Source: a virus. From it: DNA of 64,000 nucleotides. Where the stretch lies: the IMG/VR virus record IMGVR_UViG_3300045988_161200. One strand, given 5' to 3'. The translations under genes were made by a program, and so were the position numbers. Positions 1-52,595 of this stretch are shown here, piece after piece (position 1 is the first letter of the stretch; every line of letters starts with the position of its first letter). The notes under the pieces are model-generated. The model was not told where the DNA came from. It saw nothing but the letters and a program-made list of their open reading frames with translations, and ran no database searches.

Positions 1-3000
1 ATAATAAATTTAAAAACAAAAATGAATTTATTAAATCAGCAGTACAAAAACAATGCAATTAATGAGCAAACATACAGTGCTCGTATGAAGACTACTCAAA
101 CTCAACTAACTGCTCTTACGACACAAACAGAAACCCTTACTATCAAACAGCGCCTTTTAGCAGGAATTACTAAAACAGTAGCGACAGCGTTCGATATGCT
201 TAAAATGGCAGCAGTAACATTCGCTGTTAGTGGTATTATAGCACTTATTACCGAAGTTGTCAATAAGCAGAAAGAACTTGCTGAACAGACAAAACAAACA
301 GCAACCGAAGCAAAACAAACATCTACTGAAATATCTAACCTTTACACAAAATATCTTGAACTTAATCAAGCTGTTGTCGATGGAACTGGTAGCAAGGAAG
401 ATTTAAATTCTGCTACAAATGAACTTCTTAAAGCTTTAGGACTTGAAGGAATAGCAGTAGATGAATTAACCTCAAAATATGGTTCTCTCGAAAAAGCTAT
501 TTCTAATGTTACTATTGAATCTCTTAAAAGCACACACGATGATTTAGTTGCAAGCGTAGATGTTTATAAAGATGAGCTTTTAAAAATCGGACAAAGTATT
601 TGGGACGGAAATCAATTTAAAACAGCCAATTACAAGATTGAACCCAATAAATTTGATACAGAAATTGATAAAATTATTTCTGCTTTCAAGGATATTGATA
701 ATCTTGAAATCTTTAAAGATGTTGGTTTGTCTAAAAATGATAATGTAACAAACGCAGTGTTCAATCTGTTGGGCGATACAAGCACGGTCGAAGGCATCAA
801 GCAAAATTATGAAACCTTAATGGAAATGCAAGATGCTTTGGTTTCTAAATTTGGTTCTCAAAAAGCAGGAGAATTAAAAATATATCAAGAAATCAATTCT
901 CGTCTTAATGAACTCAAAACAGCTTATGAAAACTATACAGATGAAATAACAGCTTTAAATCAAAATGCTGCTAAAACTGCTGTCCTTGAAAGTCTTAAAG
1001 GTAAAGAGTTGCCAAAGACACAAGAGGAATTTAAACAGTTTTATAACGCTCTGATTTCTGAGGCAACAACAGCTGGAACAGAAATCAGAAATCAATTCGT
1101 TGGTTCCGAAGACGACATTAAAAATAGCATTAAGTCTGCTCTTGAAGGAATGTCTATTTTTGATGAGTTTACAGCAGAGCCGATCCCAGTTGAAGTAGAA
1201 GTATTCCCTACTGTAACAACTAATGTATCTGCCTTAAAACAAAGCTTAAATACCGTCAAGGAGAAGATCGAAGATACTTTTAAGAATACAAATATCTTTG
1301 ATGAAGCTATTCAGTCTATTCAAGATGGTAAGGCTATTGATTTTAGTGATGTTATGTCAATGGTTAATCTTGATAGCTCTCTTGCTGATAAATTTGTTAA
1401 GACAGCTGATGGCTATACTATTGCTATAAAAGATTTAACACAGTCTCGTTATGAGTATATCAAATCTACGAAAGATAGTATTCAGGCAGATATTGATAGT
1501 GCAAAATCATCAATTAGTACAGCTGAGGAAAACATAAATACTTATCAAAAAGAGTCAGAATTGCTTACAGAAGCGGCTAAACATAACAGTGATGCAGCTA
1601 ATCGTAAAAAAGAACTTGATAACGCTATTGCGACAGAACGACAAAATATCGAAGATGCGAATAACGTAATTACTCAAAACACATTGCTCTTAGATGAGTG
1701 TGGTGGAGCAGCAGACAACTTCGCTTCTACTGTAGATAATGTGTCTAAGAGAGTAAAACTTATAGCCACTGCAATGAAAGATATGAATGAGAACGGATAT
1801 ATTTCCTCATCTACATATGCCGAATTGCAGGAAATGGGTGGTAACTTTACTGAATGTCTTGAAGTTCAGAACGGTAAGCTTGTAGTTAATATTAAGAAGC
1901 TTAAAGAACTTGAAACACAGGAATATAAAAATAAAATTTCTGCTAAAGAACTTCTTATTGCAAGACTACAGCTTATAAATGAATCAAGAAGTGCAAGTGG
2001 ATTAGATACTTCCTTTATTGATGAACAGATATCCAATTTACAGACTGAAATTGCTGGCTATAAGACAATTATTGACGAAATCGAAGCTGCAAAGCCTAAT
2101 GATAGTGATAAACCTAAATCAGTACAAGATTTTGAAACTGAACTTGCTCGTAGACAGCACGAAATCAATATGGGGCGTATGCAAGAAGATGAAGCTTATT
2201 ATGATTGGCTTTTATCTGCTGCACACACTGCCTATGACGGGCTTGCTGATTATCAAGATGAACTCTGGAAGCACGAGGAAGAAGTTTACAAGTGGAGGCA
2301 GGAGCAAGAGCAAAAGCTTTTTGATCAGAAAATTGACAACCTTGAAAAGCTTGCTGATAAGGCTCTTGACAAAAATGTTGACAACAACGGCAATGAACTG
2401 ACTGTTACAGCAAACTTTGACTATGCCCGTGACCAGATAAACAAGGCTATTGCCGAGACACAGGCAAGAATTAACGGTATCAAAAACGGAACTATAAGCG
2501 GTGACAATGACGACATTGAAACGCTTATAGATGACCTTGACAGTCTTTATGACAAGCTCACTGATATCAATGAAAAGGAAATCGAATCTGAAAAGGACTA
2601 TATCAGTGAACTTAAAGACGATTATTCCGATATGATGGATGAGCGTATTAATAAGGTCGATGAACTTTCTGATAAGATTGAAAAGAGCTATGACAAACAA
2701 ATAGATGCCCTTGAAAAAATCAAAGATACAGAAGACAGAATCAAGAAAATCAAAGATGCTCAACTTGAAGTCAAAGAAAAAGAAAAGGCTCTTGATGATG
2801 CTAAACGTGAAGATGCTAAGAATAGCTATGTTTACTTTGATGGTGCTGGAATGTCTGTTCAGACATCGACTGAAAATCAGCAGAAAGCTCAACAAGAACT
2901 TGAAGAGAGCAGAAAAGACCTTGAAGAAGCTTATCGTGAAGAAGAAATCAATGTTCTCAAAGAGCAGAAAGAAGCTGCTACAACTTATTACGATAACGTA

Positions 3001-3861
3001 AAGGATAATCTTGAAAAACAGAAAGCACAGGGTGAAAAGACCTATGAAGCTGTTGAAAAGATTTATGAACAGCTTGGTGGTGACAAGAAACAGACTTCTT
3101 CTAATACTGGACTTCTTAGAAGGCTTTTATTTTCAGGCAATATATCTAAGGCAATGTCTGAATTGTCTGATACTGAACGCCAGAAAGCTATTGATACAGG
3201 TGTTGTCAAGGTACAGCCTAACGGTGATTATACTTTTGATTATTCTGCCTTTGCGAAATATTCAAGTACAGTAGATAATAACACGCTTGCTACACAGGAT
3301 TTGACTTCTATTCTTAAAGAGGTAGTTACTCAGGCTGATACTAATAATAAGGATAAGACTGATAATTCTATGGTTGTAGGTGGCTTTAATCTTGTTGCTG
3401 ATCCCAAGACAGGCAAACTTACTAAGAAGCAAGTTATGGTCAATGGTGAAGTTGTTGAGGGATTAGGTCACAAGGTTAATGCTACTTCTAAGGAAGAATG
3501 GCAGGAACATAATAACAGCGAAAAGACAAAAAAGGGAAGCTTTGCTGGTTATGACACGTTTTTTGATTTTATGATGGCTGTTAATGCTGGTAAAGTGGAT
3601 ATTAGTCCTCTTACTAATGCGTTTAAAAGTGACTATAATCCTATTGTTGACAAGATGAATAAGTCTATGAGTGATACCATTAACAATGTTTCTAACAGCA
3701 ATGTTAATAACGTAAATAACAAACCTGTTGTAAATCTTACTGTAAATGTTGAAGGCAGTGCTGATAAAAAGACTATTGCAGAATTTAGAAATGTGGTTAC
3801 TAAAGAAATTGGCACTGCTTTTGATGAATTTGGAAAAGCAGTACGCAATGCTAAAGTTTAA
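1..3861 (+). CDS. Tail tape measure protein (5' end probably outside the window)
   Basis: ORF 22..3861 (1279 aa) stays open back to base 1. Very long E/K/D/A-rich coiled-coil-like sequence with a hydrophobic helix (AAVTFAVSGIIALITEV). Lies upstream of tail and fibre genes. Confidence 0.8.
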   Translation: MINLKTKMNLLNQQYKNNAINEQTYSARMKTTQTQLTALTTQTETLTIKQRLLAGITKTVATAFDMLKMAAVTFAVSGIIALITEVVNKQKELAEQTKQTATEAKQTSTEISNLYTKYLELNQAVVDGTGSKEDLNSATNELLKALGLEGIAVDELTSKYGSLEKAISNVTIESLKSTHDDLVASVDVYKDELLKIGQSIWDGNQFKTANYKIEPNKFDTEIDKIISAFKDIDNLEIFKDVGLSKNDNVTNAVFNLLGDTSTVEGIKQNYETLMEMQDALVSKFGSQKAGELKIYQEINSRLNELKTAYENYTDEITALNQNAAKTAVLESLKGKELPKTQEEFKQFYNALISEATTAGTEIRNQFVGSEDDIKNSIKSALEGMSIFDEFTAEPIPVEVEVFPTVTTNVSALKQSLNTVKEKIEDTFKNTNIFDEAIQSIQDGKAIDFSDVMSMVNLDSSLADKFVKTADGYTIAIKDLTQSRYEYIKSTKDSIQADIDSAKSSISTAEENINTYQKESELLTEAAKHNSDAANRKKELDNAIATERQNIEDANNVITQNTLLLDECGGAADNFASTVDNVSKRVKLIATAMKDMNENGYISSSTYAELQEMGGNFTECLEVQNGKLVVNIKKLKELETQEYKNKISAKELLIARLQLINESRSASGLDTSFIDEQISNLQTEIAGYKTIIDEIEAAKPNDSDKPKSVQDFETELARRQHEINMGRMQEDEAYYDWLLSAAHTAYDGLADYQDELWKHEEEVYKWRQEQEQKLFDQKIDNLEKLADKALDKNVDNNGNELTVTANFDYARDQINKAIAETQARINGIKNGTISGDNDDIETLIDDLDSLYDKLTDINEKEIESEKDYISELKDDYSDMMDERINKVDELSDKIEKSYDKQIDALEKIKDTEDRIKKIKDAQLEVKEKEKALDDAKREDAKNSYVYFDGAGMSVQTSTENQQKAQQELEESRKDLEEAYREEEINVLKEQKEAATTYYDNVKDNLEKQKAQGEKTYEAVEKIYEQLGGDKKQTSSNTGLLRRLLFSGNISKAMSELSDTERQKAIDTGVVKVQPNGDYTFDYSAFAKYSSTVDNNTLATQDLTSILKEVVTQADTNNKDKTDNSMVVGGFNLVADPKTGKLTKKQVMVNGEVVEGLGHKVNATSKEEWQEHNNSEKTKKGSFAGYDTFFDFMMAVNAGKVDISPLTNAFKSDYNPIVDKMNKSMSDTINNVSNSNVNNVNNKPVVNLTVNVEGSADKKTIAEFRNVVTKEIGTAFDEFGKAVRNAKV

Positions 3862-3903
3862 ACACTTTTGATGTTTGACTTTTGTATAAAAATATAGTAA
3901 AAT

Positions 3904-3943
3904 AGAGCGTGAAGATAAGGTTCACGCTCTATTGTTTATTTTT
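3904..3943. terminator. Bidirectional intrinsic terminator between tape measure (+) and TIR gene (-)
   Basis: Perfect 10-bp stem AGAGCGTGAA (3904-3913) / TTCACGCTCT (3921-3930) with a 7-nt loop. T-rich tract follows on both strands. Confidence 0.7.
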
Positions 3944-3947
3944 ATGC

Positions 3948-4376
3948 TTAAAGTGAATAAGTTCTTATTGCAGAAACAATACTATCCGTGTACCAATTTA
4001 CAGTTGTAGTTGCAACGGAGCTAACTTCTGTTGGCATATTTACATTTCCACGAGGTTTGATTGCAATGATAGGTTTTCCCATTGCTACTGCGCAATCTAA
4101 TTCATACTGCATCCATTCACGATTATTATAGTACATTCCCGATATAACTAAAACACAATTTACAGGTCTGATTTTTCTTAAAATAGCATCTTTAATTTGT
4201 GTTTTATTGGTAACGGAAGTACCATCTAAATTTATAAGAGGATTGTCTTTTGGAGCTGAATAATTATAATACTTAAAATTAGGAGCTTCTTCTAATAAAT
4301 CATTTAAGTGAATGTAATCATCGCCGTATTTCCAAGCATGACTAATAAATAAATGGTATGGCTTTAACTCTGGCAT
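3948..4376 (-). CDS. TIR-like domain protein (ThsB / DUF1863 type)
   Basis: Read from the internal ATG at 4376 (MPELKPYHLFISHAW...). Motifs FISHAW, NCVLVISG, REWMQYELDCA and GKPIIAI match the MTH538/ThsB TIR-like pattern. The 46-codon 5' extension in the ORF track looks non-coding. Confidence 0.75.
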   Translation of the reverse strand: MPELKPYHLFISHAWKYGDDYIHLNDLLEEAPNFKYYNYSAPKDNPLINLDGTSVTNKTQIKDAILRKIRPVNCVLVISGMYYNNREWMQYELDCAVAMGKPIIAIKPRGNVNMPTEVSSVATTTVNWYTDSIVSAIRTYSL

Positions 4377-4433
4377 ATAAACTACAACCTTTCTAAAATA
4401 AAAATTTAAACAATTCCATAAGGAGGAATTATT

Positions 4434-4634
4434 TTGAATACTAATGTAAAAAAATATCGTAAGAAGCCTGTTGTAATTGAGGCATATCAAACTGACAAGG
4501 AAATTGTTATCCACACATTAGAGGGTGATATGATAGCATCTGTTGGGGATTATATTATCACGGGTGTGAATGGAGAACAATACCCTTGCAAACCTGATAT
4601 CTTTGAAAAGACTTACGAATCTGTAGAAGATTGA
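4434..4634 (+). CDS. Small conserved phage protein (PGDYG-like signature)
   Basis: AAGGAGG lies 7 nt before a TTG start. Signature [10 protein letters not shown]...TLEGDM...[25 protein letters not shown] recalls a widespread small phage protein family. 3' end overlaps the SLATT gene 3' end by 22 nt. Confidence 0.6.
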
Positions 4635-5122
4635 CTTACTTTGCTTTGCCATGTTGAAAATTCTTTAGTAAAATACTGCTCACAATTACTAACTAAGGTA
4701 TCAAATGCCACGTCTGAGTTGTTAGAATTGTAGGGCGGTATTTTATTTATAAATTTTGAAGCTTCACTTTTCAGCATCTCGCAATTCATGCGATATTGAA
4801 CCCATAAGTCTTTAAAGGTGTTTATATTTATTATATAGGTGATTACCGAGACGGCTGAACCAGCAATGGCAATTAATATTTTAACTAATGGTTTTTCTTC
4901 AAAAAGTGTTAATATTGGAATTGAAGAAGATATTATAACAGATATGACAGATAAAACTTTGTAGTATTTTTGATTATGTTTTGCTTTTTTATCATACCAT
5001 TGTATTTGGTCAAGCAATCTGTTCTTTAAATATCTTTGTTGTTTTTCAGTGTATTCACTGTAATCTATCGGAAGGTCTATTATGTAGTTTTCATTTGATT
5101 TTTTACACATTTTATGCTCCAT
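4613..5122 (-). CDS. SLATT / DUF4231-type two-TM effector-like protein
   Basis: N-terminal helix ([17 protein letters not shown]), two adjacent TM helices ([19 protein letters not shown]; [19 protein letters not shown]), then [22 protein letters not shown]. This is the typical DUF4231/SLATT layout. Confidence 0.7.
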
Positions 5123-5242
5123 TTTTCACCGTAACGAGTTGTATTGTATAAGTATATTGTATGCTATATTAAGAATAATTTCAAGTGAAATTTTGTATAT
5201 TACGGCAAATTCCATAATATTAACAAGTTTTAGCAAAATATA

Positions 5243-5270
5243 TTGTTGATAAACAACAAAAGCATATAGT
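5243..5270 (+). promoter_or_regulatory. Candidate internal promoter restarting the late operon; contains a short palindrome
   Basis: TTGTTG-16 nt-TATAGT. TTGTTG(5243-5248)/CAACAA(5254-5259) form an inverted repeat. Sits upstream of the 5310 gene and after the terminator at 3904. Confidence 0.3.
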
Positions 5271-5309
5271 TGAAATATAGACTATTAAGAATATAAGGAA
5301 AGGATTGTT

Positions 5310-5783
5310 ATGGATTACAAAAGACAAATTTTAAATTGCGCCAACGAACTTATACATAAAAACAATTCACAAATTGACAAATCTAATTTTGATAAAACCT
5401 ACATTGGTAAAGTAATAGGCTCCATAAAAGACGATAATGAAAAAGTAGTACGTTGGCAGATATTCGCAAACGCTTCTACTTTTAATGTGCTTGCTGAGAA
5501 CTGTAATGTTGTTGCAGTAGGTCAGCGTGTGAGAATGTTTATACCCAGTAATCAGAGAGATATGGTTTATGCAGAGGTTATAACCGACTATGAGTTTAAC
5601 CACCCATCGAAAGCTGTATATGATTCCGAGAAATGCACGGTAACGGAGACTTGGCTGTTATCTGACAAGACAGAAGAGACAAGGGTATTTACTCTGACTG
5701 TCAAGGATAAGGGCGGTTCATCGGAAGAAGTCACAGCGATCACTTTCCCCGATGGTAGTGTTATGAGCTTGGAGGGATTTTGA
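5310..5783 (+). CDS. Hypothetical protein (tail-region orphan)
   Basis: 157-aa ORF with an AAGGAAAGG RBS. Stop overlaps the start of the next gene (ATGA). No recognisable motif. Confidence 0.6.
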   Translation: MDYKRQILNCANELIHKNNSQIDKSNFDKTYIGKVIGSIKDDNEKVVRWQIFANASTFNVLAENCNVVAVGQRVRMFIPSNQRDMVYAEVITDYEFNHPSKAVYDSEKCTVTETWLLSDKTEETRVFTLTVKDKGGSSEEVTAITFPDGSVMSLEGF

Positions 5784-7741
5784 TGGACGTTAAGGAGACT
5801 TTGACAAGATGGTCAAGGGCGTACATGGAGCCGAGTTTGTTTTATGTGCCAGCGAAGAAGAATGATGAATATTACAATATCACATTTCATATGATGGTGG
5901 ATTATTTTGACACAGTTGATGAAAAGATATTGACGAATATGACTATTAAACAAATGTTTGAAAAATACGAAGAAAATGTGACCACTGATAAGAATAATAT
6001 CCAATATGGCTCTATTGGTCAAAATTGTAATACTGAAAGTATTTTCTTTGTTGCGTATGATGAGAATGGAAACATAGCAGATTGCTCTCTTTGGCGTGAT
6101 TTTTTCTCTGTCGCTGAAGCAACTTCAACGGAAGAAAAAAATGGATATACATTAGATACGTATTCTGTGACCAAAATACCTGAATTGTATAGAATATTGT
6201 TTATTGCTAAGAATATTACTGGTGTTAATGTTCTTAATACAGTTTTTGAAGATATGTCACATCAAATTAACTGTTTATATATCTTAGCTTCTGGTGATAT
6301 TTACAGATTTATGTTCGATTATTATGATAATGAAACTAAAAAATGGGTATATAAAACCATAAAGGTTGGAAAATATAACTACGCTACGGACAAGTTTAAA
6401 ATTGAAGATGAAGATACATATTACACTTTTGGGTTTAATAACGCATCATATAATTGGTTAACTTTTAATAAAATCCCTAATAATTTTAATTATTATCATG
6501 CTCCATATAAGGACTGGTATAATAATTCTACCGTCCCTACATTAAGATTAAAAAAAGGCACTTATATTATAAAGCAAATAGTGGCTTCAACAGGCTGCGA
6601 AATCATGAAGCCCATTACAGTAGTTGTTAATGAGGATAAGACAATATATTATAAGACTACTATTAATGGTGCAATAATGAGGTCTGAGTCTATAGATTGT
6701 CAAGACGGCTACCATGAATTATACTCAGTAAATAATAGTGGGGAGAGAGACAAATGGTTTTTAGACGAGAGTTCAACACAAGGCGGCTGGGAGATAATTA
6801 ACTACACTTATAGATTATCGGATAATGCTTTATTAGTAAAACAAAAATGTTGTAATGCTACTAGCGATAATATAACTAGTATTCCAGCCGAGTACATGAT
6901 ATCTACTGGTGATAAACTTCCTATCTTCATTTATTATGGAGGAAAAATAAAGAAATTCTATATAACAGCTGGAGCCTATAATGAAAAACATCCTGACCAT
7001 CCCCTAGATTACCCAGATAATACTATTATAGGGAGGATGTACAGCACTCCTTTTTATTATAAAAGACCTTTAACTGTGGAAGAAATAAATAAAATGGGAA
7101 TTAAAGCACCAGATGATAGTCGCAGAGGAACAAATGTTGGTTCGGGGTCAACATATTTTTATGATTTAAAATATATGTATTTTGATTACACCACCCAGTA
7201 TTCAGAAGGACATTCATACGACGACCATTGCAACGAATATGATATTTTAACAAATGAGCCGACTGCGGGAGAAATAGCAGCAGCTATAAATAAAAAAGAA
7301 CCTCTTGAATGGTATGAAACTTATATTAAAGAAGGTGAAGCAAAAGAGTTTATAAAAGATGGTGGGCACTTGAAATATTATGTTACATATAAAGGTGGAA
7401 TAGCCTATTATATGTATGATTATCATGGACTTAATTTCCAACAAAAACTTTTAAATAACGTTACTTCACCATTTTGGGATGAGTCAGTAATAAATACCGT
7501 GTTAGATTATTATAAATCAGAAGATGCAGATATAGAGAATATGTCAAAATATTTGAATATGTCAGTTTGTTGTTACGATTTAATATATTCTGATGAAACG
7601 AAGACGAGTATTACTCAATACAAAAACTATCATACAATGCTTTCTTCAGAAGTAAAGCAAGACCCTGATTGGAATGAGGAAAAATTCAACAAATTCCAGA
7701 CTGAAATGCGTCATAAGCTATATGAAGAACAACTTAAATAA
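5780..7741 (+). CDS. Hypothetical 653-aa Y/N-rich protein, possibly structural
   Basis: Long uninterrupted ORF translationally coupled to the previous gene. Function is suggested by position only. Confidence 0.65.
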   Translation: MMDVKETLTRWSRAYMEPSLFYVPAKKNDEYYNITFHMMVDYFDTVDEKILTNMTIKQMFEKYEENVTTDKNNIQYGSIGQNCNTESIFFVAYDENGNIADCSLWRDFFSVAEATSTEEKNGYTLDTYSVTKIPELYRILFIAKNITGVNVLNTVFEDMSHQINCLYILASGDIYRFMFDYYDNETKKWVYKTIKVGKYNYATDKFKIEDEDTYYTFGFNNASYNWLTFNKIPNNFNYYHAPYKDWYNNSTVPTLRLKKGTYIIKQIVASTGCEIMKPITVVVNEDKTIYYKTTINGAIMRSESIDCQDGYHELYSVNNSGERDKWFLDESSTQGGWEIINYTYRLSDNALLVKQKCCNATSDNITSIPAEYMISTGDKLPIFIYYGGKIKKFYITAGAYNEKHPDHPLDYPDNTIIGRMYSTPFYYKRPLTVEEINKMGIKAPDDSRRGTNVGSGSTYFYDLKYMYFDYTTQYSEGHSYDDHCNEYDILTNEPTAGEIAAAINKKEPLEWYETYIKEGEAKEFIKDGGHLKYYVTYKGGIAYYMYDYHGLNFQQKLLNNVTSPFWDESVINTVLDYYKSEDADIENMSKYLNMSVCCYDLIYSDETKTSITQYKNYHTMLSSEVKQDPDWNEEKFNKFQTEMRHKLYEEQLK

Positions 7742-7757
7742 AGGACGGTGAATAAAA

Positions 7758-8288
7758 ATGAAATTTAATGGAATTGAAATTTGGGACGATACTGGTCTTT
7801 GTTTTTACACTGATGTTGAAATCAGCGAAGACAATACTCATAATAGGGCAGTTGATGTTAAAGTCCCAAAGAATAACAAATTTCCTTATGTTATCCGAGA
7901 TGGCGAAGCTTCATATTGGACTGGCACAATAAATGGATTATGGCTTGATAATTCAGAGGGAGCTTGTAAAGAAGACTTCAATCTTGATACATCTACGGCT
8001 TGGATAGTTGCCCTTGCAGAGTGGTTACATAACGGAAAGCCTAAGAAGTTAAAACTTTCCGAGGATTGGATAATGACGGTTGAGATTCAGTCAGAGGTAC
8101 AATTAAATTGCGAAACTTCAGTAGATGTGGCATACAATAACAAATTGTCTTGTGGCTGGGTTCAGACGGAAGAACGTTATACATCGGATAATATAAAACT
8201 TTTACACTGTCCTAAATGCAATACTACCGTTATACCCACTGCGGTATATTGCCAGAAATGTGGCACTAAGTTGGTGAATAGTGTATGA
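7758..8288 (+). CDS. Distal-tail-protein-like (Dit-like) protein with C-terminal zinc ribbon
   Basis: MKFNGIEIWDDTGL..., PYVIRDGEASYW and LAEWLHNGKPKKLKLSEDW resemble siphovirus tail-component N-domains. C-terminus is CPKCNTTVIPTAVYCQKCGTKL. Confidence 0.45.
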   Translation: MKFNGIEIWDDTGLCFYTDVEISEDNTHNRAVDVKVPKNNKFPYVIRDGEASYWTGTINGLWLDNSEGACKEDFNLDTSTAWIVALAEWLHNGKPKKLKLSEDWIMTVEIQSEVQLNCETSVDVAYNNKLSCGWVQTEERYTSDNIKLLHCPKCNTTVIPTAVYCQKCGTKLVNSV

Positions 8289-10033
8289 GTGTTGTAGAAA
8301 ATTTTAATTTACATTATGATATTGCCCAGCCTGTCAAAGAAAACTATTTCAATCCCAAAGAATATAATTCCAATGTTATAACTCACGTTATATTCAGGGC
8401 GTATCAATATAGTTCTGATATTGTAAATAGTGCAAAATATGAGGACTTCTCCCCTAATGTTGTGGATTGGTCTTATTCTGCAAGTGTAGATGATGAATCA
8501 CGTCAAAGTGCAAATGTGACACTTCATGTTCCTAAAAACAGTAAAATGTGGTTTATGCGAAGAGAACATTTACAATATGCAGGTTATGATGGTGAATTAG
8601 GTTCTTTTATCAACGTAGGTTGGAATCCTGTAATGTACCGCTTGATGTGTGATTTTGAATTGCCTGACGGAACTAAGAACCGAGTTGATTTTGGCTTCTT
8701 TATTCCTACAGATGATAAATATGACTATGATGCGACTACAAGCACATTCACAATGTCTTTGATTGGTTGTTCTGGAAGTTTTAAGTCTGAATATGGCGGT
8801 AGCCTTGTTACATCAAGGATAGGATATCTCGAAACGGACAAAGAGGGAAATCAAAGAGAAGTAGGATTTCCTTTAGGTATTCATATTGCAAATGATACAC
8901 CTATTACATCTGATTTTATACGTCAGTTTGTTGAAAAGAATAATACGTTTTTTAGACAGAACAATTCGGAAGTTCCTGTTAAAAACATTTACATAGATGG
9001 CTTAGATTTCTACGATACGGTAAAGTATTATGAATTTGAAGAGGGCAGTTCTGTCAGTGATATTTTAAATAGTATTCTTGAAGATAGTATGCAGAATTAC
9101 ACATACTGGATAGACGAAAAGGATAATCTAAGAATACAAAAGAAGTCTCCCCTATTATATGGGGATTTACTTATGCACTATAGGGATTATAGCAGACTGA
9201 TTATTAGCGAAGGAACAAGCTATACTGACAGTGATACTATAAGCTATGCAGAAGTCTATGGCAAAGATGGAAAATATTATGGATATTGCGATTGGGCTAT
9301 GTATAACTTCGATGTTATTAGAAGTAAAGTGTTTAATTGTTCCGAGCTTGATACTGATGAAAAATGCAGAAACAGAGCAAGATGGGAATGTTACAAAGGT
9401 CTATACGGACATGAGACCTTTGACATAACTCTCGTGGGTATTTACATTACTCAGTTTCAATATCCCTCTATTGTTGTTGGCAGAAGCATTGAGTATACGA
9501 CTATGAACGGTGATACCAATGTTTATACTATTAAAAGCATAGGTTATTCAAATCACGAATGGACTTTGGGATTATCTATTTACAGACCTTATTATACTGA
9601 TGAAAAGACGGATTTATCTTCTGAGACAAGAAACAAGTATATGCTTGAAAAACCAGTTATCTTCAAACATGAAATTGACGGTAATAAGATTAAGTTATAT
9701 GTAAAATCCAAGGATATAGGAATATCTCTTGTAAAGTTATATATGAGAGCTAATTTTATTGGAGAAAGCGTTGATACCGATGGAACAGCTAATCTTGAGT
9801 GGCTTGATGAAGGTGCTTATAAGGTAATTACTTATACTATTCCAGAAGATAATCAGACTTATTTATTTAGTGTACAGTTATATAATCCTCAATATGAAAT
9901 GTCCTTATTGAGCAACACTTATATTGTAGATATTGGAACAGTTGATGATAAATATTATAAGACTAATGATGGTAAGTATATTGAAGTTATTAAAAATCAC
10001 AAGACTGAATTGTTAGAAAGGGCGGTGGAGTAA
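8285..10033 (+). CDS. Tail-associated / baseplate structural protein (Tal-like by position)
   Basis: 582-aa ORF coupled to the Dit-like gene (ATGA overlap) and followed by fibre genes. No catalytic motif seen. Confidence 0.5.
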   Translation: MSVVENFNLHYDIAQPVKENYFNPKEYNSNVITHVIFRAYQYSSDIVNSAKYEDFSPNVVDWSYSASVDDESRQSANVTLHVPKNSKMWFMRREHLQYAGYDGELGSFINVGWNPVMYRLMCDFELPDGTKNRVDFGFFIPTDDKYDYDATTSTFTMSLIGCSGSFKSEYGGSLVTSRIGYLETDKEGNQREVGFPLGIHIANDTPITSDFIRQFVEKNNTFFRQNNSEVPVKNIYIDGLDFYDTVKYYEFEEGSSVSDILNSILEDSMQNYTYWIDEKDNLRIQKKSPLLYGDLLMHYRDYSRLIISEGTSYTDSDTISYAEVYGKDGKYYGYCDWAMYNFDVIRSKVFNCSELDTDEKCRNRARWECYKGLYGHETFDITLVGIYITQFQYPSIVVGRSIEYTTMNGDTNVYTIKSIGYSNHEWTLGLSIYRPYYTDEKTDLSSETRNKYMLEKPVIFKHEIDGNKIKLYVKSKDIGISLVKLYMRANFIGESVDTDGTANLEWLDEGAYKVITYTIPEDNQTYLFSVQLYNPQYEMSLLSNTYIVDIGTVDDKYYKTNDGKYIEVIKNHKTELLERAVE

Positions 10034-10146
10034 TGGCATATATTTACGATTTAGACCCTATTACAAGTTTAAATGATGCAGATGTGTTTATTTTGAATAC
10101 AACTAATCACGTTGATAAAAAAAATCAGCTGGCACGTATTAACTAA
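10033..10146 (+). CDS. N-terminal segment of the tail fibre, out of frame with the main ORF
   Basis: TAATG overlap with the upstream stop. MAYIYDLDPITSLNDADVFILNTTNHVDKK... is a typical fibre N-terminus. The frame changes at the A8 run at 10117-10124. Confidence 0.55.
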   Translation: MAYIYDLDPITSLNDADVFILNTTNHVDKKNQLARIN

Positions 10147-11323
10147 TCAAATGCTGGACAAGGTACATAGTCATGCAAATATGCAAATTCTTGATAAATT
10201 CGGTACGAATAGTGAAGGGAAATTAACATGGGATAATGTAACTGTAGGTAGTGATTATACTTTACCTATTGCTACAGATTCAGTATTGGGTGGCGTTAAG
10301 CCCGATGGCAATACAATAACCATCGATGAAGATGGTACTATCCACGGTGCAACAACCTACACGCTTCCAACAGCAAGCACTACAGTCCTTGGCGGTGTTA
10401 AAGTCGATGGCACAACTATTACCATTGACAGTGATGGCGTTATAAAGGGCAGTGAAGCACAGCCTTATACATTGCCTGTAGCAACCACTACGATTTTGGG
10501 CGGTGTCAAGCCAGACGGTGAGACTATTAAGGTCAGCCCCGAGGGAGTAATTACCTGTATTAACGATAGTGCTATCCCAAGCTGGGTTGCAAATACGGCA
10601 TATGTTGTTGATAATCTTGTCGTTTACGGCACAATTATTTATCAATGTACCGAAGCTCACACATCAGGAACTGAGTTTGAGGCTACTCATTGGACTGCAT
10701 TAACGGGTCAGCAGGGTGAAAAGGGTGACAAGGGTGTTGACGGTGTCTCCCCTACTGCAAAAGTTACACAGACCGACTTGGGAGCTACCATAACTGTGAC
10801 TGATGCTAACGGAACTACTACTGCCAATATATCTAACGGTACATCTGCTATGCTGTCGGTATCACAGACTGAAACAGGTTGTACGGTAACTGCGACTGAC
10901 GGCTCTGGAACGACTACTGCTACTATTACCAATGGTACAAACGGTACTAATGGAGATGACGGAAAATCGGCGTATGCTATAGCAGTCGAAGAGGGTTTTA
11001 GCGGTGATGAGGCTGCTTGGCTCAACAGCCTGAAAGGTATAACGACCGTAACGTCAAGCGCTGTAAATTTGACGGGAACGTTAACAGCTGATGGCTGGTC
11101 TGACACTGCTCCTTACACTCAGACTGTTACCGTAACTGGTTTAGCTGAGGACGGATATCCTATTCTGGATTTAATTACATCAGCAGATACGACAACGGGA
11201 ATTGATGAGAACAAGCAGTGGGCGTACATAACAAAGGCAACAACTGCTGAAAATACACTGACAGTAAAATGCTATGAGAAAAAGCCTACTATTGCTTTGA
11301 ATTTCGTTATAAAGGTGGTGTAA
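10112..11323 (+). CDS. Tail fibre protein (repeat-containing, with a collagen-like segment)
   Basis: Three repeats of YTLP.A...LGGVK.DG.TI. Gly-X-Y stretch GQQGEKGDKGVDG. An A7 tract would join it in frame to 10033..10146. Confidence 0.75.
   Translation: MIKKISWHVLTNQMLDKVHSHANMQILDKFGTNSEGKLTWDNVTVGSDYTLPIATDSVLGGVKPDGNTITIDEDGTIHGATTYTLPTASTTVLGGVKVDGTTITIDSDGVIKGSEAQPYTLPVATTTILGGVKPDGETIKVSPEGVITCINDSAIPSWVANTAYVVDNLVVYGTIIYQCTEAHTSGTEFEATHWTALTGQQGEKGDKGVDGVSPTAKVTQTDLGATITVTDANGTTTANISNGTSAMLSVSQTETGCTVTATDGSGTTTATITNGTNGTNGDDGKSAYAIAVEEGFSGDEAAWLNSLKGITTVTSSAVNLTGTLTADGWSDTAPYTQTVTVTGLAEDGYPILDLITSADTTTGIDENKQWAYITKATTAENTLTVKCYEKKPTIALNFVIKVV
10256..10556 (+). repeat. Three tandem ~33-36-aa intragenic repeats in the fibre gene
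   Basis: YTLPIATDSVLGGVKPDGNTITIDEDGTIHG / YTLPTASTTVLGGVKVDGTTITIDSDGVIKG / YTLPVATTTILGGVKPDGETIKVSPEGVITC. Confidence 0.85.
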
Positions 11324-11325
11324 AC

Positions 11326-12072
11326 ATGGCTGATTGTTTTATTACACGAAGAGGATATGGAAGTGGTGGGGGAAGTTCTATTACTACTGTAACTCCTGAA
11401 AAATTAGGATACGTTTCTGATGCTATTTTGTTTTTTGACGGTCGATACAATTCCCCCTCTAAACATATATCTAACGGGTCATACTGGATTGATTTAGTGG
11501 AAAACATTTTGGCACAAAGAAATAATATCAATAGCGGAACAGATTTGATTAATAACGATTACTATATTAAGCAAACAGGTGTAGCTTCATCATTTAAAAT
11601 TCCAAACAATTTTAATTTTGACACTTTTACTATTGAAGTGTTTATTGAAATTATTAGCGATGGTGGTACTGGAGAGAATGATATTTTTGATAACTACAAA
11701 TTTGCTGGATTTGGAATATATACTGAGAACAACAAACTTTGTGCATCAATACATAATAATAGCAATTATTCAATTATTAAAACGGATTACACACTGAACA
11801 CAGAATATCTAATAACCATTACTTATGATGGACAAGTATTTTCTTTTTATCTTAATGGCATATTAGTTAATACAGCAGAAGTGTCTAATTATAAAAAAAC
11901 AACAAAGTATCCTTATTTGGGAAGTTACGATGGAAATAATTGTGCTTCAGGAACTTATAATTATTATCGTTTTGGAGTTTATAACAGAGCTTTAACTACT
12001 ACTGAAATCACTCAAAACTACAATAAAGACGTATATAGATATGTCGATGGTAACACTGACAATATAAACTGA
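11326..12072 (+). CDS. LamG / concanavalin-A-like lectin domain protein (fibre-associated)
   Basis: FTIEVFIE..., FYLNGILVNT and YRFGVYNRALTTTEITQNY are typical of a LamG jelly-roll C-terminus. Confidence 0.6.
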   Translation: MADCFITRRGYGSGGGSSITTVTPEKLGYVSDAILFFDGRYNSPSKHISNGSYWIDLVENILAQRNNINSGTDLINNDYYIKQTGVASSFKIPNNFNFDTFTIEVFIEIISDGGTGENDIFDNYKFAGFGIYTENNKLCASIHNNSNYSIIKTDYTLNTEYLITITYDGQVFSFYLNGILVNTAEVSNYKKTTKYPYLGSYDGNNCASGTYNYYRFGVYNRALTTTEITQNYNKDVYRYVDGNTDNIN

Positions 12073-22499: not shown

Positions 22500-24254
22500 T
22501 CATATGCCCGTTTGAACAGTAAAGGTTATTTTGCGACAATGCCCTATATGTCTCATATCAGGATGGATAAAGCTCCATTGTTGTTTGGTAGTCATCTTCT
22601 TAGTGATGTTACCCGAACAACAATGATGTTTGTCTCGAATACAAGTATAGTTATTACTCTCACCGGTTTTTAATTTTATCTCGATTTTCATACATTCTTC
22701 GTTTCGAGGAATTATTGTTATCCTATCTACTACTGTTGTAACTATTTCGTCCACCTCTTCTTTTGTCATAATTCTGTCTGGATGATACATTTCCTTAAAA
22801 TACTTCTCAATTTTTTCAAGCTCTTTGGCATAGGCTTCTGAAGAACAATTTCTTTTTTCAATAGCAGAGACTTCTTCTTCTAATTCGTTAATGAGAATGT
22901 TGGAAGCATCATTTCTTTCCTTAAATTCTTTTTTGGTAATGATATCTTCAGTATACGCATCAAGAAGTTTTTCTCTCTTTGCTTTTTCCTTTTCTATCTT
23001 TGCTTTAAGAGCATTGAGTTCACGTTGATTTTCGGACGATGTATCTGTTTCACGATAAATTTTCAAAAAGGTTGCAACATAGTCGTCAATGTTTTCAGCG
23101 ATGTTTTTAAAATGTTCTGATAGCATTTGATATATGTCCGATTCGAGAATTGCAAATGAAGCGCAAGCTCCCGCTCCAAAACGACGTTTTTCACTGCATA
23201 TCCATTGATATATAGGTGTTCCCTTTGAAACACTATTAGAGTAGCTTGTGCGCCAATATGCCTTGTCGTCTGCACCGCACCAGATTTTTCCAGATAAGGC
23301 GCTTCTATCTTTGAATGATCTTGAATGACTCTTTACTACTGCGCTTCTTTCACGAAAAATTTTATTGCACTTATCCCACAGTTCTTCACTGACTATAGCT
23401 GGAACTATTTCTCCAGTTTCGTCTTTGTATACAATCCATTCGTTTTCAGGCAAGAAGCGTTGTTCTTTAGTGCGATAGTCAATAATCTTTACTTTGTTAC
23501 CGCAATAATAACCTTTGTATTTGGGATTTTGTATAATTCCCGAAATAGTGTTATGGTGTAACCGGGTACCATTTCTACTACGATACCCTTTATTATACAG
23601 AATATCTTCTAACTTTCTTACGCTATAAGCTCCAGTAGCATATCTATCAAAGATTAATCGAATCATTTCAGCTTCTTTTTCATTGATAACAAGCTTACAA
23701 TTATCTTTATCGTACCCATAGATACGATTATTACCCATAACAGTTCCATTTTCAATAGAACGCTTATGCCCCCAACGAACACGCTCAGAAAGTTTACGAA
23801 CCTCATCAGCTGCAATACTTGACATTATAGTCAAACGTAGTTCACTGTCTGTATCAATGGTGCAGATATTATCATTCTGAAAGAAAACTCCAACACCAGC
23901 ACGAAGAAGTTCACGAGTGTAAACCAAACTATCAACTGTATTACGGGCAAAACGACTGACCTCTTTGGTGAGAACGAGGTCGAATCTTCCAGCTTTCCCA
24001 TCTTCTATCATTTGTATAAAGTTTGTACGATTGATTGCATTTTCTCCTCTAATACGATCAATATATCCCTCGACATATGTCCAGTTTTTATTAGATTTAA
24101 TAAAGTCGGTAAAATATGTTATCTGGTTCTCAATAGAGTTTTCTTGTTCTTCTCTGGTCGTTGAAACACGAGCATAAAAGGTCACTCTGAGTTTTAAATC
24201 AAAGATTGTTTTTTGCTCATATTTCATTCGATTGGCGGTTTCGTATATATCCAT
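22500..24254 (-). CDS. Large serine recombinase (integrase)
   Basis: Resolvase catalytic domain FYARVSTTREEQENSIENQ...LVLTKEVSRFARNT, recombinase domain, then a Cys-rich zinc/coiled-coil region. GGAGGG RBS. Confidence 0.9.
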   Translation of the reverse strand: MDIYETANRMKYEQKTIFDLKLRVTFYARVSTTREEQENSIENQITYFTDFIKSNKNWTYVEGYIDRIRGENAINRTNFIQMIEDGKAGRFDLVLTKEVSRFARNTVDSLVYTRELLRAGVGVFFQNDNICTIDTDSELRLTIMSSIAADEVRKLSERVRWGHKRSIENGTVMGNNRIYGYDKDNCKLVINEKEAEMIRLIFDRYATGAYSVRKLEDILYNKGYRSRNGTRLHHNTISGIIQNPKYKGYYCGNKVKIIDYRTKEQRFLPENEWIVYKDETGEIVPAIVSEELWDKCNKIFRERSAVVKSHSRSFKDRSALSGKIWCGADDKAYWRTSYSNSVSKGTPIYQWICSEKRRFGAGACASFAILESDIYQMLSEHFKNIAENIDDYVATFLKIYRETDTSSENQRELNALKAKIEKEKAKREKLLDAYTEDIITKKEFKERNDASNILINELEEEVSAIEKRNCSSEAYAKELEKIEKYFKEMYHPDRIMTKEEVDEIVTTVVDRITIIPRNEECMKIEIKLKTGESNNYTCIRDKHHCCSGNITKKMTTKQQWSFIHPDMRHIGHCRKITFTVQTGI

Positions 24255-26581: not shown

Positions 26582-27073
26582 TTAGTCACAATAAAGGACT
26601 ACTTTGTTTTGTTTAAGGGATTCTTGAACGTCAATGACACGTTGATTTGAGCTTCCTCGCCAAGCCAATGAAATATCTCTTTTATCGTGCAAATATGCTC
26701 CGTCAACTACTATATGTAGTGTTTTTAGAATGTCAAAACACAATATATAGTTCCATTCATACCCTGTATATAACCATTGCTTGATAGTTGGAAATCTATC
26801 ATATACTTCTTGCGAAATTTTAGCAACAGTGTCTATATTTTTAGGATCAAGAGGGTGTCCACCCGAAAAAGTTAGCCGAGAGATATAAGGCTTGTCAAGT
26901 GCTTCAAGAATTTCCTGCATTGTATCCTCTGTAAAGGGTTGCCCTGCATTAAAATCCCAAGTTTGAGGATTATGACAGCCGTGGCAATGGCAGTTGCACC
27001 CTGATACCCAGAGTACAACCCCTATGCCTGTGCCGTTAGCAGTATCACACTTACTGATTTTTATGTAATTCAT
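26582..27073 (-). CDS. nrdG: Anaerobic ribonucleotide reductase activating protein
   Basis: Radical-SAM cluster motif GCNCHCHGCHNPQTW. Small size. Coupled to nrdD. Confidence 0.85.
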   Translation of the reverse strand: MNYIKISKCDTANGTGIGVVLWVSGCNCHCHGCHNPQTWDFNAGQPFTEDTMQEILEALDKPYISRLTFSGGHPLDPKNIDTVAKISQEVYDRFPTIKQWLYTGYEWNYILCFDILKTLHIVVDGAYLHDKRDISLAWRGSSNQRVIDVQESLKQNKVVLYCD

Positions 27074-50617: not shown

Positions 50618-51964
50618 TCAACTCATACTGATTTCTGTCTTATCATCTCTAATACGATGTGTCCATACAGGAAATCTTAACCCATAACCTCCGTTATCAT
50701 TTTTGCTGATTTCAAAATACTGAATAGTAGCTATCTTGCCGATTATTTTAGCGGGATTATCCCAAAAATCGACACGTTCCTCCTCTGAGAAACCACTGCC
50801 ACATTCACACTGATAGTGCTTGCTGTTGTAAATAAACTCCACTATGATACCACCAAGCTTATTTACATTTTTACCCGTACCCTCATAAACATCAATGATT
50901 TTTAAATCAGCATCCTGCATAACCTTGACTTTGAGCAGATTATTCGTTCTCTTAAATTCATACATACCATCGTCAAGGTTAATCATTACGCCTTCCTTAT
51001 GATTTTCTCTTGCTTTATTAAGAAATTCCATAATCATAGATTTATCCGCACCGTGATACAAAACTGGAAGTATATTTATATGTGTTATATATGGGAGTGC
51101 AGTTGTAACTAATCTATTCATTTCTTTTATACATTCATCAATGTAATCTAATACATATCTACGGGCACGATATTCTGCTTTACACTTCTGTTTTACAAAT
51201 TCATCATAAGTTAATATATCAAATATGTTATACTTTAAACCACGTTTTTCACCTTTAGTTCTTGCTGTCTTTGTAACTCTCTTATAGTTTTCATCAGATG
51301 AAATGTTTTCGCATTCCATATCTACAAGTTCACCGTCAAAGAAAGCATCTGAAATTCTACAAGTTGTGAAAAGTCGTTTCATATCTTCTTCAATCTCAAC
51401 AAGCCCCTCTATAAGTTGTCCCTGTCGAGAATAAAACTTAATTTCGCCATTATGTATTACAGTAGCTAATCTGAAGCCATCAAGTTTTTCGGTGAGTGTG
51501 AACCGACCCGTAACCTTTTCAGGCTTTTCAAAATATTTGTTAGCTAATTGAATTTCAAATGACGGTACGAAACCATTACCATATACACTATTTACTATCT
51601 TAGCATCTATACCAAGCTTCAGAGACTTCGTCACAAGCTGTTTATAATATTCCTTATATTCTTCAGGCTGTAGACTGATAAAACCTTGCACAATAGCTAT
51701 GTCTGTATCTCTGCCAGTGTTATTGGTCTCAAGATACATCATCATATCTCGCCAAGTCTGAATTGGAGTTGTATCATACTTAACTGGTTTATTAAGCTTT
51801 TTGGTGCTGATTCCTGTTATCACAAACGGATTTAAGAGCCATTTTAATGTATCGGTAAACAAAATGTTTCTTTCATTAGCTTTCAGAATTTCAATCTTTT
51901 CAGTTTTTTTGCTTGTTGACTGGAGCTGATTGAATATTTTGAATACGTTAGTCATCTCATTCAT
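50618..51964 (-). CDS. ATP-dependent DNA ligase
   Basis: Motif I TEKLDGFRLA, FDGELV, EGVMINL, LLKVK. Confidence 0.8.
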   Translation of the reverse strand: MNEMTNVFKIFNQLQSTSKKTEKIEILKANERNILFTDTLKWLLNPFVITGISTKKLNKPVKYDTTPIQTWRDMMMYLETNNTGRDTDIAIVQGFISLQPEEYKEYYKQLVTKSLKLGIDAKIVNSVYGNGFVPSFEIQLANKYFEKPEKVTGRFTLTEKLDGFRLATVIHNGEIKFYSRQGQLIEGLVEIEEDMKRLFTTCRISDAFFDGELVDMECENISSDENYKRVTKTARTKGEKRGLKYNIFDILTYDEFVKQKCKAEYRARRYVLDYIDECIKEMNRLVTTALPYITHINILPVLYHGADKSMIMEFLNKARENHKEGVMINLDDGMYEFKRTNNLLKVKVMQDADLKIIDVYEGTGKNVNKLGGIIVEFIYNSKHYQCECGSGFSEEERVDFWDNPAKIIGKIATIQYFEISKNDNGGYGLRFPVWTHRIRDDKTEISMS

Positions 51965-52595
51965 TTGTAGAATCTCCTTTCAGTTCTTCATCGTAAACAT
52001 CAAAATCAAAAATAAGATGCTTTCTACTTGCAATATAATCACACAGATGAACACATTTCTGAATGTCTGTTTCGGGAATAGGAAGTATATCATCTGAATA
52101 TTTTGATGTATTCCACTTACCCATATGAGAAGCCACTGCGTCAGAAATTGTCAATACTCTTGTACCAAAATAAAGGTCTAAGGCATTAGTCATACAGTTC
52201 ATATTATTCTTATTAACATATTCTGCGTATTTTTCTAAAATAAAGTATTTCATAAGTATAGGATGATTGAAAGCTGTATGATCTTCCCACATACCACACT
52301 TTAACCCATCATGAAGAATGAGTGCCGATGTTACAACATCTTTATCGGCATCATTGAAATTATAAAAATCTGCCCTAAATAAATCCTGTGCCATTGCAAC
52401 AGCAGCTTTAGTGTGTCTGATAAGTCCTCCTTCCCCTATTGTATATGACGGATGATACTTACCACTCGTACTTGCACCAATATGTCTAAAATAATCTGGA
52501 AGGTCATCAAGAACAAAAGCTGTGAAATCTTTAATTTTACTATCCTTGATAAAACTTAATTCTCTTGTAAAATTTTCTGAATTTGTCATATTCAT
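51957..52595 (-). CDS. HD-domain phosphohydrolase
   Basis: GLIRHTKAAV ... ALILHDGLK (H...HD pattern). Confidence 0.6.
   Translation of the reverse strand: MNMTNSENFTRELSFIKDSKIKDFTAFVLDDLPDYFRHIGASTSGKYHPSYTIGEGGLIRHTKAAVAMAQDLFRADFYNFNDADKDVVTSALILHDGLKCGMWEDHTAFNHPILMKYFILEKYAEYVNKNNMNCMTNALDLYFGTRVLTISDAVASHMGKWNTSKYSDDILPIPETDIQKCVHLCDYIASRKHLIFDFDVYDEELKGDSTNE

Follow-up and report, generated by a model that had tools for sequence, protein, structure and literature searches.

Here we describe a block of about 1.45 kb in a 64,000-nucleotide stretch of viral DNA (IMG/VR virus record IMGVR_UViG_3300045988_161200; this whole stretch is referred to below as the window), in which two genes for a TIR-domain protein and a SLATT membrane protein enclose another conserved gene, encoded on the other strand. 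We refer to the first two as thsB-like and thsH-like, after their resemblance to the genes of type VII Thoeris, and to the enclosed gene, whose product is PGDYG-like, as PG. The block interrupts the tail operon of a large phage. Taken as a whole, we give a probability of about one half to the reading that it is a mobile type VII-like Thoeris cassette with a nested antidote, PG.

By itself, the pair adds one more phage-borne example to a type of system published in late 2025, and indicates that temperate phages of gut Bacillota commonly carry type VII-like Thoeris. What is new is the layout, a recurrent and previously undescribed one in which a conserved phage gene lies within a signaling defense system, on the strand opposite to it. 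This arrangement bears on how prophages that carry abortive-infection systems escape self-killing on induction. It also makes PG a candidate inhibitor of Thoeris systems based on cyclic ADP-ribose (cADPR), none of which has been reported in the Thoeris literature we surveyed, and offers a first testable function for one of the largest families of phage proteins labeled as "unknown". If the reading is true, a temperate phage arms its lysogen with Thoeris and disarms Thoeris during its own lytic cycle.

A phage-borne TIR–SLATT pair resembling type VII Thoeris

The initial annotation of this DNA, made from the letters alone, had recognized a 142-residue TIR-like protein and a 169-residue protein with the SLATT/DUF4231 layout. 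Both identifications were upheld by profile hidden Markov models, which matched well above their cut-offs. For the TIR protein, the Pfam model ThsB_TIR scored 49.4 bits (E = 6e-13; cut-off 21.2), while TIR_2 stayed below threshold; PADLOC ThsB (E = 1e-11) and phrog_6988 (E = 1.5e-37) matched as well. The motifs FISHAW, VLVISG, WMQYELD, and GKPIIAI are all present, and an alignment of 18 homologs (60–84% identity) is invariant at F10–W15 (FISHAW), I78–G80, and E92 of WMQYELD. No sensor or effector domain fused to this TIR was detected in the Pfam scan.

The second protein was matched by DUF4231 (69.6 bits), Pfam SLATT_1 (46.6 bits; cut-off 26.3), NCBIfam SLATT_1 (100.6 bits; cut-off 41), and phrog_7395 (E = 1e-30), and by PADLOC only weakly, as a "4TM effector". 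Its first ATG, at 5122, yields the 169 residues of the initial annotation; the second, at 5110, has a GGAG ribosome-binding site and is the more likely start, giving a protein of 165 residues, as gene callers do for its relatives. Two adjacent hydrophobic segments span residues ~49–71 and ~73–97, and the AlphaFold2 model comprises four helices (predicted local distance difference test, pLDDT, 80). Neither a PDB sequence search nor a Foldseek search of this model against PDB returned a solved SLATT relative. The name denotes the SMODS/SLOG-associated two-transmembrane domain, reportedly described by Burroughs and colleagues in 2015. SLATT effectors are predicted to be activated by nucleotide signals and to damage membranes.

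Operons of a TIR gene and a SLATT gene received experimental validation in December 2025, under the name "type VII Thoeris" (ThsB and ThsH; Yirmiya et al., bioRxiv 10.64898/2025.12.03.692087). Three such systems defend their hosts, and infection is required before their TIRs produce canonical cADPR. When supplied to cells bearing a type VII system, cADPR was toxic, and ThsH was modeled as an oligomer that spans the membrane; neither Tad1 nor MoTad2 inhibits these systems. The same paper makes no mention of a third gene, of antisense genes, of PGDYG, or of phage-borne copies (bioRxiv 10.64898/2025.12.03.692087). The novelty that the initial annotation saw in a TIR–SLATT module is therefore out of date, now that such systems are experimentally confirmed and the signal they use is known. 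Given this validation, the window pair falls in with a known kind as a phage-borne member, and it very probably constitutes a type VII-like Thoeris defense.

Like type VII Thoeris, the window pair comprises only a single-domain ThsB-type TIR and a small SLATT membrane protein, and the logic expected to be shared is one in which phage-triggered cADPR would lead to oligomerization of the SLATT protein. The roles proposed in the initial annotation, a TIR signal generator and a SLATT membrane effector, agree with the domains and with the validated operons, in which the activities themselves were shown. Two differences from type VII stand out. The window cassette is phage-borne and located inside a tail operon, and, whereas type VII operons consist of two adjacent genes, those of the window are split by the antisense PG. 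The strict adjacency of type VII is found in relatives such as the locus L177.

Other signaling systems fit less well. Type I and type II Thoeris rely on a SIR2-SLOG ThsA or on a transmembrane-Macro effector, but the cassette proteins gave no SIR2, SLOG, or Macro match, in line with the initial annotation, which had noted the lack of a ThsA of either kind. The SLATT effectors of CBASS (antiphage signaling that is based on cyclic oligonucleotides) and of other systems belong to the same SLATT_1/DUF4231 family as the window protein; CBASS, however, generates its signal with a CD-NTase, whereas the window uses a TIR together with a minimal 165-residue SLATT that has no fused sensor. Rst_2TM_1TM_TIR (Rousset 2022) was considered and set aside: the only mention of SLATT in that paper concerns an RT-SLATT system, and PADLOC gave no match.

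To place the TIR more precisely, we compared it with the TIR sequences of Table S1 of Yirmiya et al., in the portion of that table covered here; the motifs NYSAP and FISHAWKYG of its own subfamily did not turn up in that portion. Its identity to the validated type VII ThsB of Pseudohongiella, with which it shares a sequence cluster, is 28% (E = 3e-22); that protein is itself 33–42% identical to members of our family from two-gene loci and from loci with all three genes (hereafter, triads). Several points temper the type VII assignment. Within this portion of the table, the B. licheniformis type VII ThsB gave a marginal match (27%, E = 9e-7) and the Alteromonadales type VII ThsB no significant one. 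Identity was 43% to a TIR associated with "3TM" and 36% both to the type IV ThsB of E. coli 328 and to the type VIII ThsB of Pseudomonas. The "3TM", type IV, type VIII, and Pseudohongiella TIRs belong to or resemble cluster 2734565194 of the same study; since, in the sequences compared, one TIR clade is common to types IV, VII, VIII, and the "3TM" systems, the TIR by itself does not reveal the signal. Moreover, the window SLATT protein is a putative counterpart of ThsH, matched to it through shared domain models alone. The signal is most likely cADPR, a suggestion drawn from the type of effector only.

It is very unlikely that the pair does not signal at all, with the TIR acting as an NAD+-depleting toxin and the SLATT protein independently, in a holin-like role or in superinfection exclusion, or with the genes forming a toxin–antitoxin-like addiction module. 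Many bacterial TIRs are NADase effectors, which the authors of the Thoeris survey filtered out (bioRxiv 10.64898/2025.12.03.692087). The SLATT protein shows no recognizable ligand-binding domain beyond its helices, and the weakness of its PADLOC match is in keeping with such a role. Against this, the TIR is a minimal, single-domain protein of ThsB type to which neither a sensor nor an effector is fused, its close coupling to SLATT extends across phyla, and three TIR–SLATT systems signal through cADPR, with effectors that respond when it is added.

A third gene is nested between the pair on the opposite strand

The initial annotation described a module of two genes. It missed a third conserved gene, at 4434–4634 on the plus strand, which lies between the pair and travels with both TIR and SLATT. 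Its product matches phrog_419 (E = 1.9e-29). The match to Pfam PGDYG (PF14083) is borderline, at 27.1 bits against a cut-off of 27 and over ~30 of 102 model positions, and PGDYG is the only Pfam family that matches at E ≤ 1. With PGDYG and phrog_419 it shares the core GDY-I-I-T-G ... YPCKPDIF, and it represents a short form, without the insert of the longer ones. The family is large: related clusters at 90% identity number at least 8000, of which the best 120 share 76–98% identity, and an exhaustive profile search recovered 21,325 clusters (50% identity) at E ≤ 1e-3 and 12,787 at E ≤ 1e-10. An alignment of 51 PG sequences has 19 invariant columns, including those of the polar residues E30, D39, Y50, C52, K53, and Y61. 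A full-text literature search found no paper that pairs DUF4231 with a TIR and none that mentions PGDYG.

We examined the conservation of this arrangement in 163 loci encoding TIR relatives (80 viral, 80 genomic, and 3 from metagenomes), whose six-frame open reading frames were searched with the window SLATT and PG. The genomic relatives were gathered by an alignment-based scan, as single-sequence peptide patterns gave none. A SLATT(+)/PG(−)/TIR(+) triad of near-constant geometry is present in 105 of these loci (75/80 viral, 27/80 genomic, and 3/3 metagenome) and persists down to ~42–50% TIR identity. The genomic triads come from Clostridia and Negativicutes (Veillonella, Megasphaera, Anaerovibrio), Thermoanaerobacterium, Peptococcaceae, and one member of the Bacteroidota. 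In 25 further genomic loci, from many phyla including archaea, SLATT directly adjoins TIR and PG is missing; this adjacency speaks for the pair as a defense system. Defense-system finders that demand strict gene adjacency may miss or mis-score loci split in this way.

The triads fall into two classes of context. In the first, the cassette is an antisense island in a late operon, as in the window family and in L003, L015, L095, L125, L138, and L153; in the second, it lies at the integrase end of prophages. The second is exemplified by the PG variant P0185, for which, together with its triad, the contig collection has at least 2974 index blocks; in each of the eight places listed, this triad sits between the prophage integrase and the lysogeny/early region, and its neighbors vary (SIR2_2, KAP NTPase, Abi_alpha, and CAP12-TIR genes). 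The position between tape-measure and distal-tail genes, which the initial annotation had emphasized, is thus not special, as the cassette is also found beside integrases, after lysis genes, and in other late operons. At the integrase ends of the prophages L164–L171, the triad occupies a variable hotspot beside SIR2_2, KAP NTPase, Abi_alpha, CAP12-PCTIR TIR, or TPR genes, a setting that favors a defense role for the pair.

The arrangement also extends beyond the window family of TIRs. The ThsB that stands upstream of SLATT in L239 and L251/L252 is of another type, and PG still converges on SLATT there, across a gap of 2 nt. That this convergence is kept with another TIR type points to the SLATT/PG convergent pair as the conserved core.

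An alternative that we regard as unlikely is that the locus is a plain two-gene type VII-like Thoeris system and PG an ordinary phage gene trapped between thsH and thsB, a passenger with no function there. The census of PG itself lends weight to this alternative and counts against an antidote. Among the 80 best-matching PG loci in IMG/VR, 52 are stand-alone and 23 are triads; the remaining five have PG and SLATT with no TIR of the window family, two of them being cut by contig ends. The stand-alone copies are mostly co-directional with the phage operons that contain them, many of these copies belonging to late or lysis regions and not to early ones, and in an unrelated phage a 95%-identical copy of PG is placed between tail genes and lysis genes. 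PGs from triads and stand-alone PGs do not sort into clades of their own (the mean identity is 0.72 within the groups as well as between them), and one PG core sequence occurs in both settings. In addition, two-gene forms work elsewhere, and one of them, L177, is phage-borne, so that PG is not obligatory. L177 likewise excludes PG as a marker of phage-borne copies only, an idea that we had considered.

A passenger, however, should decay or disappear, yet the layout is retained in 105 of the 163 loci over the range of TIR divergence given above, and PG keeps its 19 invariant residues. Its convergence with SLATT is maintained with a different TIR type and a different gene order. The layout further forces an antisense overlap with both defense genes, and the links of PG to Thoeris sponges, through fusions and neighborhoods, are difficult to put down to coincidence. 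Both of these are detailed in the following two sections.

The layout forces sense and antisense transcription to overlap

The thsB-like and thsH-like genes share a strand and are separated by 236 nt, the antisense gene lying between them, and no promoter-like site or terminator was found between the two in the window. The best promoter-like site for a leftward transcript lies upstream of SLATT (Table 1). Such sites occur upstream of SLATT in 25% of 69 triads, compared with 6% of shuffled sequences, and cluster 40–60 nt upstream. Scans upstream of PG and of thsB in 71 triads gave a weak enrichment (14–15% vs 6–7%). Across 79 non-redundant triads, the spacer between PG and TIR measures 11–78 bp, and in most of them the greater part of it is taken up by two ribosome-binding sites placed back to back (CCTCC / AGAAAGGA). 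As this spacer is too short for promoters, the sense and antisense transcripts must overlap. On the simplest reading of the sequence, one leftward transcript would run from thsH through antisense PG into thsB, and a rightward PG transcript would start inside antisense thsB and continue into antisense thsH.

In the window, the TIR and SLATT genes (−) are antisense to the flanking tail genes (+), as the initial annotation had stated, and PG runs with the latter. We considered, and rejected, the generalization that PG is always co-oriented with flanking lytic genes: it is true for the late-operon insertions and for the integrase-adjacent prophages of the P0185 type, but not for L239 and L251. In these two, PG is co-oriented with the integrase, so a "lytic direction" of PG is not universal, which tells against the general form of the mechanism proposed below.

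Downstream of the TIR gene, the initial annotation had placed a perfect bidirectional terminator, at 3904–3943, that closes the cassette. A perfect hairpin with a 13-bp stem is indeed present, at 3901–3933, and is followed by a T-run on the plus strand; the tail on the minus strand is T-rich but weaker. That the hairpin closes the cassette reads too much into it, as in sister phages free of the cassette the tape-measure gene is also followed by a hairpin, of a different sequence. For the 90 nt downstream of the TIR stop codon, the folding energy is −23.1 kcal/mol, and other late-operon triads have unrelated strong hairpins at the same place. Between 3600 and 5600, the 3901–3933 hairpin is the only terminator-like site. 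Its loop (3914–3920) is inverted relative to L008–L010, the stems being identical: read in TIR orientation, it is CCTTATC in the window and GATAAGG in L008, which looks like the result of recombination within the palindrome.

PG is linked to families of Thoeris-signal sponges

Tad2 (PF11195), Sequestin (PF21825), and Lockin are unrelated, validated families of sponges for Thoeris signals; fusions of one sponge to another are frequent, and such fusions led to the discovery of Sequestin (Tal et al., bioRxiv 10.1101/2025.07.12.664507). PG domains take part in fusions of this kind. They are joined to a Tad2-like domain (PF11195) in P0305, P0309, and P0354 (4/64 long representatives) and to Sequestin (PF21825) in P0266. 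Conversely, an N-terminal PG-like domain, scoring 74–87 bits against the PG profile, is found in at least five of the Sequestin homologs (Table S1) and at least four of the Lockin homologs (Table S4) of Tal et al.

Genomic neighborhoods point the same way. Among 134 same-strand neighbors of stand-alone PG genes, the commonest Pfam family is Sequestin (PF21825; five genes), and Lar anti-restriction (three) and Macro_2 (one) also occur. By a crude count, there are seven Sequestin-like genes in 384 kb of PG loci vs one in 1.94 Mb of TIR loci. In L199 and L203, the gene directly upstream of PG encodes a DUF4406 (nucleoside 2-deoxyribosyltransferase-like) protein, and L199 has a Sequestin-like gene nearby.

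Like Tad2, Sequestin, and Lockin, PG is a small, widespread, and mostly stand-alone phage protein, and it is fused to or found beside all three. Unlike them, it is also encoded inside a defense cassette, whereas sponges have been found in infecting phages, and it has no sequence similarity or significant structural similarity to them and is net acidic. Pfam and PDB searches placed PG, by sequence or fold, in none of Tad1, Tad2, Acb4 (PF13876), Sequestin, and Lockin. TadIV-1 (T4 vs.3), a protein of 92 residues with no recognizable domain, was considered as a relative and set apart, by its description only.

From its position and these associations, we tentatively propose that PG is an antagonist or self-immunity factor, that is, an antidote, of the Thoeris pair. 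A broader claim, which we consider doubtful at this stage, is that short-form PGDYG/phrog_419 proteins constitute a very large phage counter-defense family that neutralizes TIR-derived ADP-ribose signals, and perhaps the first directed against canonical cADPR (types VII and VIII).

The predicted structure of PG was informative mainly with respect to its own family. The AlphaFold2 model is a small six-strand beta barrel with a C-terminal helix (pLDDT 87.5), and a Foldseek search against BFVD returned phage PGDYG proteins (template-modeling (TM) score 0.81, E = 6e-7) as its only significant structural neighbors. In several respects, PG does not look like a nucleotide sponge, and these temper the antidote proposal. 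Searches against PDB, by sequence and by Foldseek, gave nothing significant, and Tad2 structures align with the PG model at chance level (E = 0.8–2.5, TM score 0.37–0.43). The acidity of PG (8 K/R vs 12 D/E) is a further such point, as is the lack of PG motifs in the table of pocket- and structure-predicted sponge candidates of Tal et al. Finally, the 3743-residue protein P0255 contains 31 PG-like repeats (for example, TLEGVGTGKKGDWLVTGPQGEKY), and so many copies in one protein suggest a generic binding fold.

Tandem PG-like modules, in 4–31 copies, were seen in the giant proteins P0255, P0257, P0259, P0267, and P0334, and P0256 is a short-form PG duplicated in tandem. The Pfam domain most frequently fused to close PG relatives is DUF551 (5/64 long representatives); it was confirmed individually in P0395 only, and a WHRVE..LP motif suggests it in P0349, P0352, P0385, and P0391. 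DUF551 may be another counter-defense candidate.

A barrel of this kind also brings up the possibility that PG works with the cassette and not against it, either as a sensor or adaptor that conveys a phage cue to the TIR or as a nucleic-acid-binding regulator (Tudor/SH3-like barrel) of the cassette or of late genes. We hold this to be quite unlikely. It would account for the conserved association with TIR and SLATT, and the invariant E30, D39, Y50, C52, K53, and Y61 would suit a binding or active site; Tudor/SH3-like structural neighbors appear at chance level, some PG relatives carry zinc-ribbon fusions, and Sigma70_r4 genes are among the neighbors at stand-alone loci. A cooperating subunit, however, would not usually be encoded on the opposite strand with a forced antisense overlap, two-gene systems defend without PG, and stand-alone copies abound in phages that have neither TIR nor SLATT. 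The domains to which PG is fused are, moreover, counter-defense sponges and not sensors.

A proposed defense-plus-antidote module

Returning to the reading of PG as an antidote, the cassette could operate as follows. The leftward unit would consist of a promoter (~5156–5184), the SLATT effector gene thsH, the TIR gene thsB, and the terminator hairpin (3901–3933). In a lysogen, the TIR would sense an incoming phage and convert NAD+ to a signal of the cyclic ADP-ribose kind, most probably canonical cADPR. In response, the two-transmembrane SLATT protein would oligomerize and breach the membrane, and the infection would be aborted. The signal chemistry and the membrane killing are carried over here from type VII Thoeris, and the whole of the antidote role we infer from gene layout and associations.

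In this scheme, thsB would be transcribed only through antisense PG, and PG only from antisense thsB into antisense thsH. Transcription of PG in the lytic direction, which in the window is that of the tail operon, would interfere with the expression of thsH and thsB. The PG protein, for its part, would neutralize the signal, by sequestering or degrading it, or would block ThsB or ThsH, and the phage's own lytic cycle would be spared. The joint claim, that the triad is a defense-plus-antidote module in which PG disarms the pair both by transcriptional interference and as a protein, and that the PG family has the counter-defense function suggested above, must be regarded as speculative and, in its entirety, rather improbable.

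A purely conceptual analog is BstA with its aba element, from Salmonella phage BTP1, a prophage defense with built-in self-immunity. There, an abortive-infection prophage system carries an element that spares the phage's own lytic cycle, and the same concept is proposed for the window cassette. The two differ in the nature of the antidote: that of BstA is a DNA element inside the gene, whereas in the window it would be a protein-coding antisense gene combined with transcriptional interference.

The host phage and the insertion site

The host is a large phage, with near-identical relatives in IMG/VR that span 118–135 kb. The window encodes a large serine recombinase (Resolvase + Recombinase + Zn_ribbon_recom; 22500–24254, minus strand), for which reason the phage is probably temperate. 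It also encodes a GH25+M15 lysin. The TIR protein is present, in addition, on contigs of up to 554 kb, which fits a temperate lifestyle.

The cassette, a block at about 3895–5309, is a phage-borne insertion in the intergenic spacer that separates the tape-measure gene from the first gene of the distal tail. In the sister phages L184/L185 and L187/L188, the site is empty: the tape-measure gene is followed by 58–95 bp, within which these phages have a hairpin of their own, and then by the 157-residue tail protein gene (85–86% identical to that of the window in L184/L185, and 59–60% in L187/L188), with TIR, SLATT, and the PG-like gene all missing at the site. We found no flanking direct or inverted repeats around the cassette that would mark a mechanism of insertion, and no anomaly in its GC content (0.31 vs 0.33–0.37 in the flanks). 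No Rfam family or tRNA was detected in the window, and a megablast search of positions 1–12000 against GenBank phages returned no match. The features of the cassette and its flanks are listed in Table 1.

Table 1 Features of the cassette, its flanking genes, and the alternative gene order (window positions unless a locus is named)
Feature	Position	Strand	Basis or remark
Tape-measure-like tail gene, 1279 aa; upstream flank, outside the cassette	22–3861	+	Weak PHROG tape-measure match (E = 3e-4); position before distal tail genes
Perfect hairpin, 13-bp stem, 7-nt loop, intrinsic-terminator-like	3901–3933 (stems 3901–3913/3921–3933)		100% complementary; predicted to end leftward thsH–thsB and plus-strand tape-measure transcripts
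thsB-like gene, single-domain TIR, 142 aa, ATG start; predicted signal-producing enzyme	3948–4376	−	Pfam, PADLOC, PHROG
Possible PG promoter, TTGTCT-16-TATAAT, inside the thsB coding sequence; weak	4243–4270	+	14% of triads vs 7% of shuffles
thsB ribosome-binding site, AGAAAGG	4388–4394	−	AGAAAGG(A) motif seen again in most of 79 non-redundant triads
PG ribosome-binding site, AAGGAGG, 7 nt before TTG	4420–4426	+	Complementary CCTCC in most triads
PG-like gene, 66 aa, TTG start, PGDYG-like (phrog_419); candidate antidote/counter-signaling protein	4434–4634	+	PHROG, Pfam, conservation, AlphaFold2
Convergent 22-nt overlap of PG and SLATT 3' ends	4613–4634		4–34 nt overlap or near-abutment in most triads
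thsH-like gene, SLATT/DUF4231 two-transmembrane protein, 165 aa; predicted membrane effector	4613–5110	−	Pfam, NCBIfam, phrog_7395
Sigma-70-like promoter candidate, TTGAAA-17-TACAAT, for leftward transcript	5156–5184	−	Best promoter-like site, upstream of SLATT
Distal tail gene, 157 aa; downstream flank, outside the cassette	5310–5783	+	Empty-site comparison with sister phages
Alternative architecture: one or two ThsB-type TIRs (other subfamily) upstream of SLATT, PG convergent	L239:2483–4452; L251:2456–3777		

Elsewhere in the window, a replication and nucleotide module is encoded on the minus strand, with NrdD (27070–29265), an ATP-dependent DNA ligase (50618–51964), a RecD-like helicase (52592–54868), DNA polymerase III alpha (54847–58047), and a PD-(D/E)XK nuclease (58048–59202). 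The tail gene that follows the 157-residue one is mosaic: its product has 653–655 residues in the window (5780–7741, plus strand) and in L185; in L184 and L188 it has 496–500 residues and differs in its C-terminal part. Further downstream, GC content rises to 0.44–0.47 at 10200–11400, against ~0.33 around it. This segment largely coincides with an open reading frame at 10112–11323 (plus strand), whose 403-residue product has short PHROG matches to tail-fiber and tail-assembly families, and it could be a repeat-rich or newly acquired tail-fiber segment.

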